Source: a virus (taxonomy: Duplodnaviria > Heunggongvirae > Uroviricota > Caudoviricetes). Taken from it: 64,000 nt of DNA. The stretch's first letter is position 1. Each line of letters starts with the position of its first letter. Under the pieces are notes generated by a model. The model did not search any database. It worked only from the letters and a program-made list of their open reading frames with translations, and was not told where the DNA came from. Below, piece after piece: positions 17,151 through 19,004 of the stretch. A program made the position numbers and the translations under genes. The stretch lies in IMG/VR virus record IMGVR_UViG_637000107_000010; one strand, written 5' to 3'.

Positions 17151-19004
17151 ATGACATTTAAACATTATGATGTTGTCAGGGCGGCGTCGCCGTCAGACCT
17201 TGCGGAAAAGCTGACACACAAACTGAAAGAGGGCTGGCAGCCGTTTGGTAGTCCNGTGGCCATAACCCCTTATACCCTGATGCAGGTGATTACAGCAGAA
17301 GGTGATGTGGTGGTCAGTGGTGCAACTGAGCCGGATTGGTACTACGTCATCGTACTGGCCGGGCAGTCCAATGCCATGGCTTACGGTGAAGGGCTTCCGC
17401 TGCCGGATTCATACGATGCTCCGGATCCGCGCATTAAACAGCTGGCGCGCCGCAGTACAGTNACGCCGGGTGGGGCTGCCTGCAGATATAACGATATTAT
17501 TCCGGCCGACCACTGCCTGCATGATGTGCAGGATATGAGTACGCTGAATCATCCGAAGGCAGACCTGAGCAAAGGGCAGTACGGCTGTGTCGGCCAGGGN
17601 TTACATATTGCCAAAAAACTGCTNCCGTATATCCCGAATAACGCGGGGATCCTGCTGGTACCATGCTGTCGTGGTGGTTCGGCATTCACCCAGGGCGCGG
17701 AGGGGACATTCAGTGCGGACGCGGGGGCCAGCCAGGATTCGGCGCGCTGGGGTGTGGGTAAACCGTTATATCAGGACCTGATTGCGCGCACTAAAGCTGC
17801 ATTACAGAAGAACCCGAAAAATGTGTTGCTGGCGGTGTGCTGGATGCAGGGAGAGTTTGACATGAGCGCCGCCACCCACTGCACAGCAACCTGCGCTTGT
17901 TTACAGCCATGCTGGCACAGTTTCGTGCTGACCTCTCCGTGTTTAACGCGCAGTGCCATGGTGGCAGTGCTGCAGATGTGCCGTGGATTTGTGGTGACAC
18001 GACGTATTACTGGAAAAATACNTACGNNACCCAGTACNACACCNTNTACGGNGNGTANAAAAACAGGGAGAGTGAGGGCGTTTATTTTGTGCCCTTCATG
18101 ACAGACGGTAACGGCGTCAATACCGCCACTAACGCGCCGGCAGAAGATCCGGATATTCCGGCATCAGGATATTACGGTGCGGCATCGAGAACGAATGGAA
18201 ACCAGGTATCATCAAACCGCCCGACACATTTCAGTTCATGGGCGCGCAGGAGCATTATTCCGGATCGTATGGCAACCGCTATTCTGAACGCAGCCGGGCG
18301 CACCTCAGCCTTCATCAGTGGTAAGGCACCGGAAATCAAACCCTCGCCCGGCGGCAACACGCCATCGGGTCCGTCTGCAGATACGTCCGTTCGCACAATC
18401 TCCCTGCTGCCGGCAGCCGGAGAGGCTGCTGCGCAGGGCTGGAGCATTAAGGATGGCGGAATTCAGTTGTCAGATGGTGTATTTAAGATCACCANGCAGA
18501 NCAATAAAACCTGGTCCCTGACGCATCCGGTGGATGACGCAATTACCCTGCTGACACAGGGCGGCAGACTGACCTGTAAGTTCCGCCTGTCAGGCGCACT
18601 GACCAACAATCAGTTCGGGCTGGGGATTTATCTGTATACGGATGCTCCCGTTCCTGATGGTGTGGCGATGACGGGTACCGGTAATCCGTTCCTGATGTCG
18701 TACTTTACTCAGACCACTGACGGCAGAGTGAATCTGATGCATCACAGGAAAGCCGGAAACACGAAGCTGGGGGAGTTCGGCGATTACGGTAACCGACTGG
18801 CAGACGCTGGAGCTGGTGTTCACCGCCGGCAGTGCCACGGTTACTCCGAAACTGAATGGAGTGGCTGGCCCGGCATTCCAGGTTATAAAAGACAGTCTGA
18901 CACTGGGACTGAATGCGCTGACGCTGACGGATGTTACAAAAAATGCAGCGTATGGCGTTGAGATAGAAAGTCTGGTGCTGGAGATAAATGCACCGGCAGC
19001 ATAA
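17151..19004 (+). CDS. nanS: NanS-p-like sialate O-acetylesterase (DUF1737 N-terminus, SGNH/SASA esterase domain); disrupted by N bases and an apparent frameshift near 18794
   Basis: N-terminus MTFKHYDVVRAASPSDLAEKL; esterase motifs; one extra C (ggtaaccgactgg) versus the P2 copy. Confidence 0.75.

Follow-up and report, generated by a model that had tools for sequence, protein, structure and literature searches.

The window analysed here, a stretch of DNA of 64,000 nt, carries two nanS-p genes, and each contains a short cluster of ambiguous bases (Ns). We consider it very likely that both clusters represent consensus ambiguity produced by pooling reads from near-identical nanS-p paralogs of a single O157:H7 genome, that of EDL933 or a very close relative. 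The original prediction had suggested that a segment differing among nanS-p paralogs was collapsed during assembly, and our analysis supports this suggestion: the nine N sites coincide one for one with the positions at which two haplotypes, referred to as hapA and hapB, differ from each other, and both haplotypes are found, free of ambiguous calls, in different paralogs of the finished EDL933 chromosome. The feature is an assembly artefact laid over a real but unremarkable dimorphism among paralogs. Coordinates are collected in Table 1.

Table 1. Features of the window, and nanS-p paralogs of the finished EDL933 chromosome (NZ_CP008957.1).
Feature	Coordinates	Strand	Remarks
nanS-p copy 1, DUF1737-SASA-DUF6645 esterase	window 17151..19004	+	disrupted by 1-nt insertions at 17880, 17897 and 18793
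nanS-p copy 2	window 44894..46746	+	disrupted by 1-nt insertions at 45788 and 45808
N cluster, nanS-p copy 1	window 18022..18058	+	9 ambiguous calls in 37 nt
N cluster, nanS-p copy 2	window 45763..45808	+	8 Ns at copy-1 sites, extra T at 45788, inserted N at 45808
Shared 1.15-kb stretch, copy 1 side	window 17838..18990	+	nearly identical in seven EDL933 paralogs
Shared 1.15-kb stretch, copy 2 side	window 45581..46732	+	13 of 15 Ns on paralog-variable columns
Paralog O1, CP-933O first prophage	EDL933 1859884-1861737	+	hapB
Paralog Y, ssrA prophage	EDL933 3571915-3573768	-	hapB
Paralog O2, CP-933O second prophage	EDL933 1907347-1909197	+	hapA
Paralog M, CP-933M	EDL933 1267489-1269339	+	hapA
Paralog P, CP-933P	EDL933 2332008-2333858	-	hapA
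Paralog R, CP-933R	EDL933 2152546-2154399	-	hapA
Paralog U, CP-933U	EDL933 2789290-2791140	-	hapA
Segment	window to 19019		O1 locus
Segment	window 19020-19450		P/O2-like sequence
Segment	window 19450-22857		ssrA-prophage structure, lysozyme::ISEc8 fragment::IS629
Segment	window 22857-44624		EDL933 1885420-1907174
Segment	window 44625-45640		5' half of CP-933R gene, zero non-N mismatch
Segment, rest of copy 2	window 45640-46868		best 500-nt matches alternate among U, P and M
Segment	window 46868-54247		IS629, then CP-933V-like late region; 98.6% identity, 46 gaps
Segment	window 53790-64000		CP-933M, EDL933 1271486-1281696

Ambiguous calls are sparse in the window as a whole, which contains 93 Ns, each of them single or double and with no longer runs. 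At this density 0.054 Ns would be expected per 37 nt, and the probability of encountering nine or more in such an interval is about 1e-17. The Ns of copy 1 lie at 18022, 18027, 18028, 18038, 18044, 18046, 18052, 18054 and 18058, and those of copy 2 at 45763, 45768, 45769, 45779, 45785, 45794, 45796, 45800 and 45808. When the two copies are aligned, copy 2 proves to have an N at 8 of the 9 sites of copy 1 (a placement expected by chance with a probability of about 2e-7), and, as had been noted at the outset, the Ns fall in the same codons in both genes (aa 290-303 of the 616/617-aa protein). The further claim that the two patterns are the same holds for these eight sites but not in the strict sense: the sixth site is N at 18046 and G at 45787, and copy 2 has both an extra T (45788) and an additional, inserted N (45808). 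Of the limits that had been given to the clusters, 18021..18058 and 45763..45800, only the first needs to be moved, to 18022; the other ends stand, with the N at 45808 lying further on in copy 2.

Each nanS-p gene, as written, consists of two ORFs because of single extra bases (Table 1), and removal of these five inserted bases yields uninterrupted 616-aa ORFs in both copies. The 1-nt insertions are spurious. The original prediction was correct to regard the central part of both predicted proteins as unreliable, and the problem is larger than was stated then, as the five frameshifts add to it. With the inserted bases removed, the window copies encode the same 616-aa protein as their finished orthologues, which are 616 or 617 aa long and contain DUF1737 (aa 3-47), SASA (aa 66-262) and DUF6645 (aa 467-577) domains. 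Both copies match O157:H7 genes annotated as SASA family carbohydrate esterase or DUF6645 protein, and matches to them are present in 2256 of 5426 complete E. coli genomes, at up to 15 places per genome. The finished orthologues reside in lambdoid prophages, flanked by tRNA genes on one side and by holin/lysozyme genes on the other, and the genes studied here are likewise placed upstream of holin/lysozyme, within lambdoid late regions. Saile et al. 2016 (cited in PMC8065619 and PMC10462455) are credited there with describing the NanS-p sialate O-acetylesterases of the EDL933 prophages, the z1466 family, and PMC8065619 reports esterase activity on Neu5,9Ac2 for EDL933 nanS-p alleles. Like NanS-p of EDL933, the window copies combine DUF1737, SASA and DUF6645 and sit between the Q/tRNA region and the lambdoid lysis genes; unlike NanS-p of EDL933, they are not intact as written, owing to the Ns and the frameshifts. 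Judged by domain content and position, the window genes are members of this NanS-p family, putative 9-O-acetyl sialate esterases, and belong to the subtype of non-Stx prophages (616-617 aa). A search of a phage collection showed that the subtype of Stx2 phages is only ~69% identical in this region, and it is therefore too distant to have been the source of the mixed reads, a role for which we had considered it.

What varies in nature at the nine N sites was assessed by scanning IMG/VR viral contigs with a 57-nt pattern in which these sites were left free. Among the 123 natural matches, 106 carry hapA (ACTGGGCGT) and 10 carry hapB (CGCAATGCC), with a minor variant (ACTGGGAGT) accounting for six and a recombinant (CGCAGGCGT) for one. 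The two main haplotypes differ at all nine N sites, their identity elsewhere in the 57-nt pattern being a consequence of how the pattern was constructed. HapA has A, CT, G, G, G, C, G and T at these sites and hapB, as it stands at the copy 1 locus in finished EDL933, has C, GC, A, A, T, G, C and C, so that the substitutions from hapA to hapB are A>C, C>G, T>C, G>A, G>A, G>T, C>G, G>C and T>C. At the protein level the patch reads NTYATQYDTVYGGYKN in hapA and NTYGTQYNTIYGAYKN in hapB, with four conservative changes (A/G, D/N, V/I and G/A at aa 292-302), and it falls just past the region matched by the SASA profile. Both haplotypes can occur in one genome, on different prophage contigs, and of 955 records matched by a 151-nt hapB probe, 481 contain it exactly, many of O157:H7 among them. 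We note that the finished alleles closest to the two window copies, those of strains 4276 and RIMD 0509939, are both hapA at the nine sites, so that the two window paralogs alone did not explain the Ns; the argument against paralog differences that this seemed to offer was removed by the degenerate-pattern scan together with the loci of finished EDL933.

The window matches E. coli O157:H7 EDL933 with approximately zero non-N mismatches in every segment; window 7267-19019, for example, corresponds to 1857267-1861749 in NZ_CP008957.1, with mismatches that are essentially only Ns. Finished EDL933 contains seven paralogs of this 3' family, all unambiguous, of which two are hapB, including that at the copy 1 locus (O1), and five are hapA. 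Two divergent, Stx-type nanS-p copies are located in CP-933N and CP-933V. Derivation of hapB from these divergent paralogs was considered and rejected, as their patch reads KSESTYQTVYGSYKN or similar. The nine copies located, namely the seven paralogs and those in CP-933N and CP-933V, make ten when one in 933W is added, matching a reported count; the number of nanS-p genes given for EDL933 is 7 or 10 depending on the assembly (PMC8065619).

The coincidence of Ns with differences among paralogs extends beyond the patch. In the shared stretch of about 1150 columns the seven paralogs vary at 26, and Ns in copy 1 fall on variable columns in 10 of 11 cases, as against 16 of 1142 other bases (Fisher p 5e-17). 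The corresponding figures for copy 2 are 13 of 15 Ns and 13 of 1137 other bases (Fisher p 1e-21), and one of its two Ns off variable columns is the inserted N. Ns occur mostly at columns whose minor base is shared by two or more of the seven paralogs, and differences confined to a single paralog mostly carry no N call (for example those at 18034, 18384 and 18598), as would be expected if reads had been mixed. When the whole window was compared with 520 kb of prophage DNA from finished EDL933, 43 of the 64 Ns matched by two or more paralogs lay on variable sites, compared with 1879 of 34208 other positions (OR 35, p 1e-38), and N density peaked at 3.1 per kb where at least four paralogs match.

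The remaining 21 of these 64 Ns lie on sites that are invariant among the fetched paralogs, and several are inserted bases. The record therefore also contains a second class of Ns that are plain low-quality calls. Ns of this class are densest at 48384-51451, where there are 20 Ns in 3 kb. Could the clusters in the nanS-p genes be of the same kind, caused by a compression or a poor read end and independent of any difference among paralogs? The presence of this second class, and of spurious 1-nt insertions near the clusters (at 17880, 17897, 45788 and 45808), would be in keeping with such an origin, which we nevertheless regard as improbable. The nine cluster sites account for every hapA/hapB difference in the patch, with correct calls at the intervening bases, and the same sites are affected in two stretches that were built separately, a coincidence whose small chance is given above. 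Outside the shared sites the Ns of copies 1 and 2 are not the same, and neither are their spurious indels.

We therefore favor a collapse of paralogs as the explanation for the clusters, and it probably came about as follows. The 3' 1.15 kb of nanS-p is almost identical in seven prophage copies, and reads from it could not have been assigned to any one of them. The 37-nt patch is the exception in this shared stretch, existing in two versions with nine nucleotide differences. If hapA and hapB reads were stacked together at each of the two window loci, nine columns would have become ambiguous because each showed two bases. The pattern would then be shared by the two copies through a repeated mixing of hapA with hapB, and not through duplication of a single consensus. 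Mixing of reads at both loci would account for what we observe directly, namely Ns that coincide with haplotype and paralog differences, loci that are unambiguous in an independent, long-read assembly of EDL933, and a window that is a mosaic containing mis-joins at repeats.

The mosaic is extensive. At least six EDL933 prophage loci, each with approximately zero non-N mismatch, are patched together in the order O1, P/O2, ssrA-prophage, O2, R, U/M, V-like and M (Table 1), which is the product expected of a shotgun assembly in which repeats have collapsed. The nanS-p genes themselves are involved. Copy 1 has a single non-N substitution (at 18706) relative to the finished O1 gene up to 18998, and its 3' end and the DNA downstream switch to CP-933P/O2-like sequence. 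The DNA upstream of copy 2 is that of the second CP-933O prophage, with a switch just 5' of the start codon to the finished CP-933R allele, which the 5' half of the gene follows; this half (44625-45640) is also identical to the allele of strain RIMD 0509939. The window lacks the late region of the first CP-933O prophage, 22.7 kb in length (1862716-1885419), and the ssrA-prophage structure bridges the gap. We considered and rejected the possibility that the lysozyme::ISEc8::IS629 junction is itself an assembly error, this being a real ssrA-prophage structure present in hundreds of assemblies; in the window it is joined to the wrong prophage. We also note that a 76-aa truncated lysozyme ORF at the ISEc8 junction (20059-20289) is identical in more than 237 assemblies whose contigs exceed 1 Mb, which marks the junction as old and fixed in the ssrA prophage of O157:H7. 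No O157:H7 genome in the best 60 records listed has window 48200-57000 as one contiguous piece, and 48384-51451, for which a CP-933V-like late region (98.6% identity, 46 gaps) is the only alignment, is probably the part of the window that is poorest in quality or most chimeric.

These properties suggest that the source of the window is probably the 2001 assembly of EDL933 (AE005174 / NC_002655). That assembly contained 6,641 ambiguous calls, 2,413 of them codes other than N, and was confounded by phage repeats of more than 7 kb (PMC4132626); the ambiguous calls are gone in the PacBio/Illumina assembly of 2014, CP008957 (Latif et al. 2014, PMC4132626). Like the 2001 genome, the window has scattered ambiguous calls concentrated in phage repeats. 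It also lacks 22.7 kb of the 2014 assembly, which, minus a 4-kb gap of Ns, comes near the 18.9-kb difference in size reported between the 2001 and 2014 assemblies (PMC4132626). Unlike the 2001 assembly as published, with its many non-N IUPAC codes, the window shows only N, the codes presumably having been converted. As a separate matter, late-phage genes at 2313226-2323238 in the finished chromosome (CP008957.1) are annotated as frameshifted and adjoin a duplicated late region; this run may reflect residual errors or the 'large duplication' of the authors.

The original prediction had offered real heterogeneity in the population as an alternative, in which the cells of the culture differ at a given locus, as they might if hapA and hapB paralogs were still undergoing gene conversion. 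Short-tract exchange between paralogs does take place over evolutionary time: among the natural IMG/VR loci there is no linkage between the haplotype of the patch and SNPs located 99 nt upstream or 255 nt downstream, and the recombinant CGCAGGCGT (locus L104, around 775, - strand) has its breakpoint inside the patch, which together indicate that hapA and hapB are shuffled by ordinary short-tract exchange among prophage paralogs. As an account of the Ns, however, heterogeneity is not needed, and we think it very unlikely. The seven loci of finished EDL933 have a single clean haplotype each, Ns in other parts of the window likewise follow fixed differences among paralogs, and a near-balanced mixture at two loci simultaneously would require an implausibly high rate of conversion. 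Moreover, the window is chimeric between loci, and mis-assignment of reads did therefore occur.

Two functional readings of the patch fare less well still. It is hardly to be expected that hapA and hapB constitute a functional cassette, exchanged by short-tract gene conversion among nanS-p paralogs and tuning substrate or glycan specificity; if they did, some of the ambiguous calls of the old assembly would stem from real conversion within the culture. Targeted hypervariation of the kind produced by diversity-generating retroelements (DGRs), or similar, with the Ns standing for many variants, might be brought to mind by nine changes in 37 nt between nearly invariant flanks in a protein with a putative carbohydrate-binding C-terminus, but we reject it as having a negligible probability on the grounds of the substitution spectrum, which includes changes of all kinds and is not adenine-specific, and of the number of haplotypes (two main and two minor ones among 123 natural loci), with four amino-acid changes that are conservative and every finished EDL933 locus fixed.

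Collapse of near-identical paralogs remains the reading we prefer, and its consequences are mainly practical. As written, with their Ns, frameshifts and chimeric halves, both nanS-p genes are unsuitable for protein prediction, SNP calling or the counting of paralogs, and the finished EDL933 chromosome, in which the gene is intact at 616/617 aa at every locus, should be used for them. The scattered Ns of the window are nevertheless useful as a marker of collapsed prophage repeats and of mis-joins.

The lambdoid prophages of O157:H7 are mosaic and undergo short-tract recombination, as comparisons of Sakai and EDL933 have made clear. The hapA/hapB patch, which is exchanged without regard to neighboring SNPs, and the mosaic 5' halves of the paralogs conform to this picture; set against the known mosaicism of these prophages they are nothing new in kind, the patch being one more small exchanged segment. 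The finding is an ordinary one. With respect to the biology of O157:H7 it confirms only what was already known, that the organism harbors many nanS-p paralogs and that these exchange short segments.
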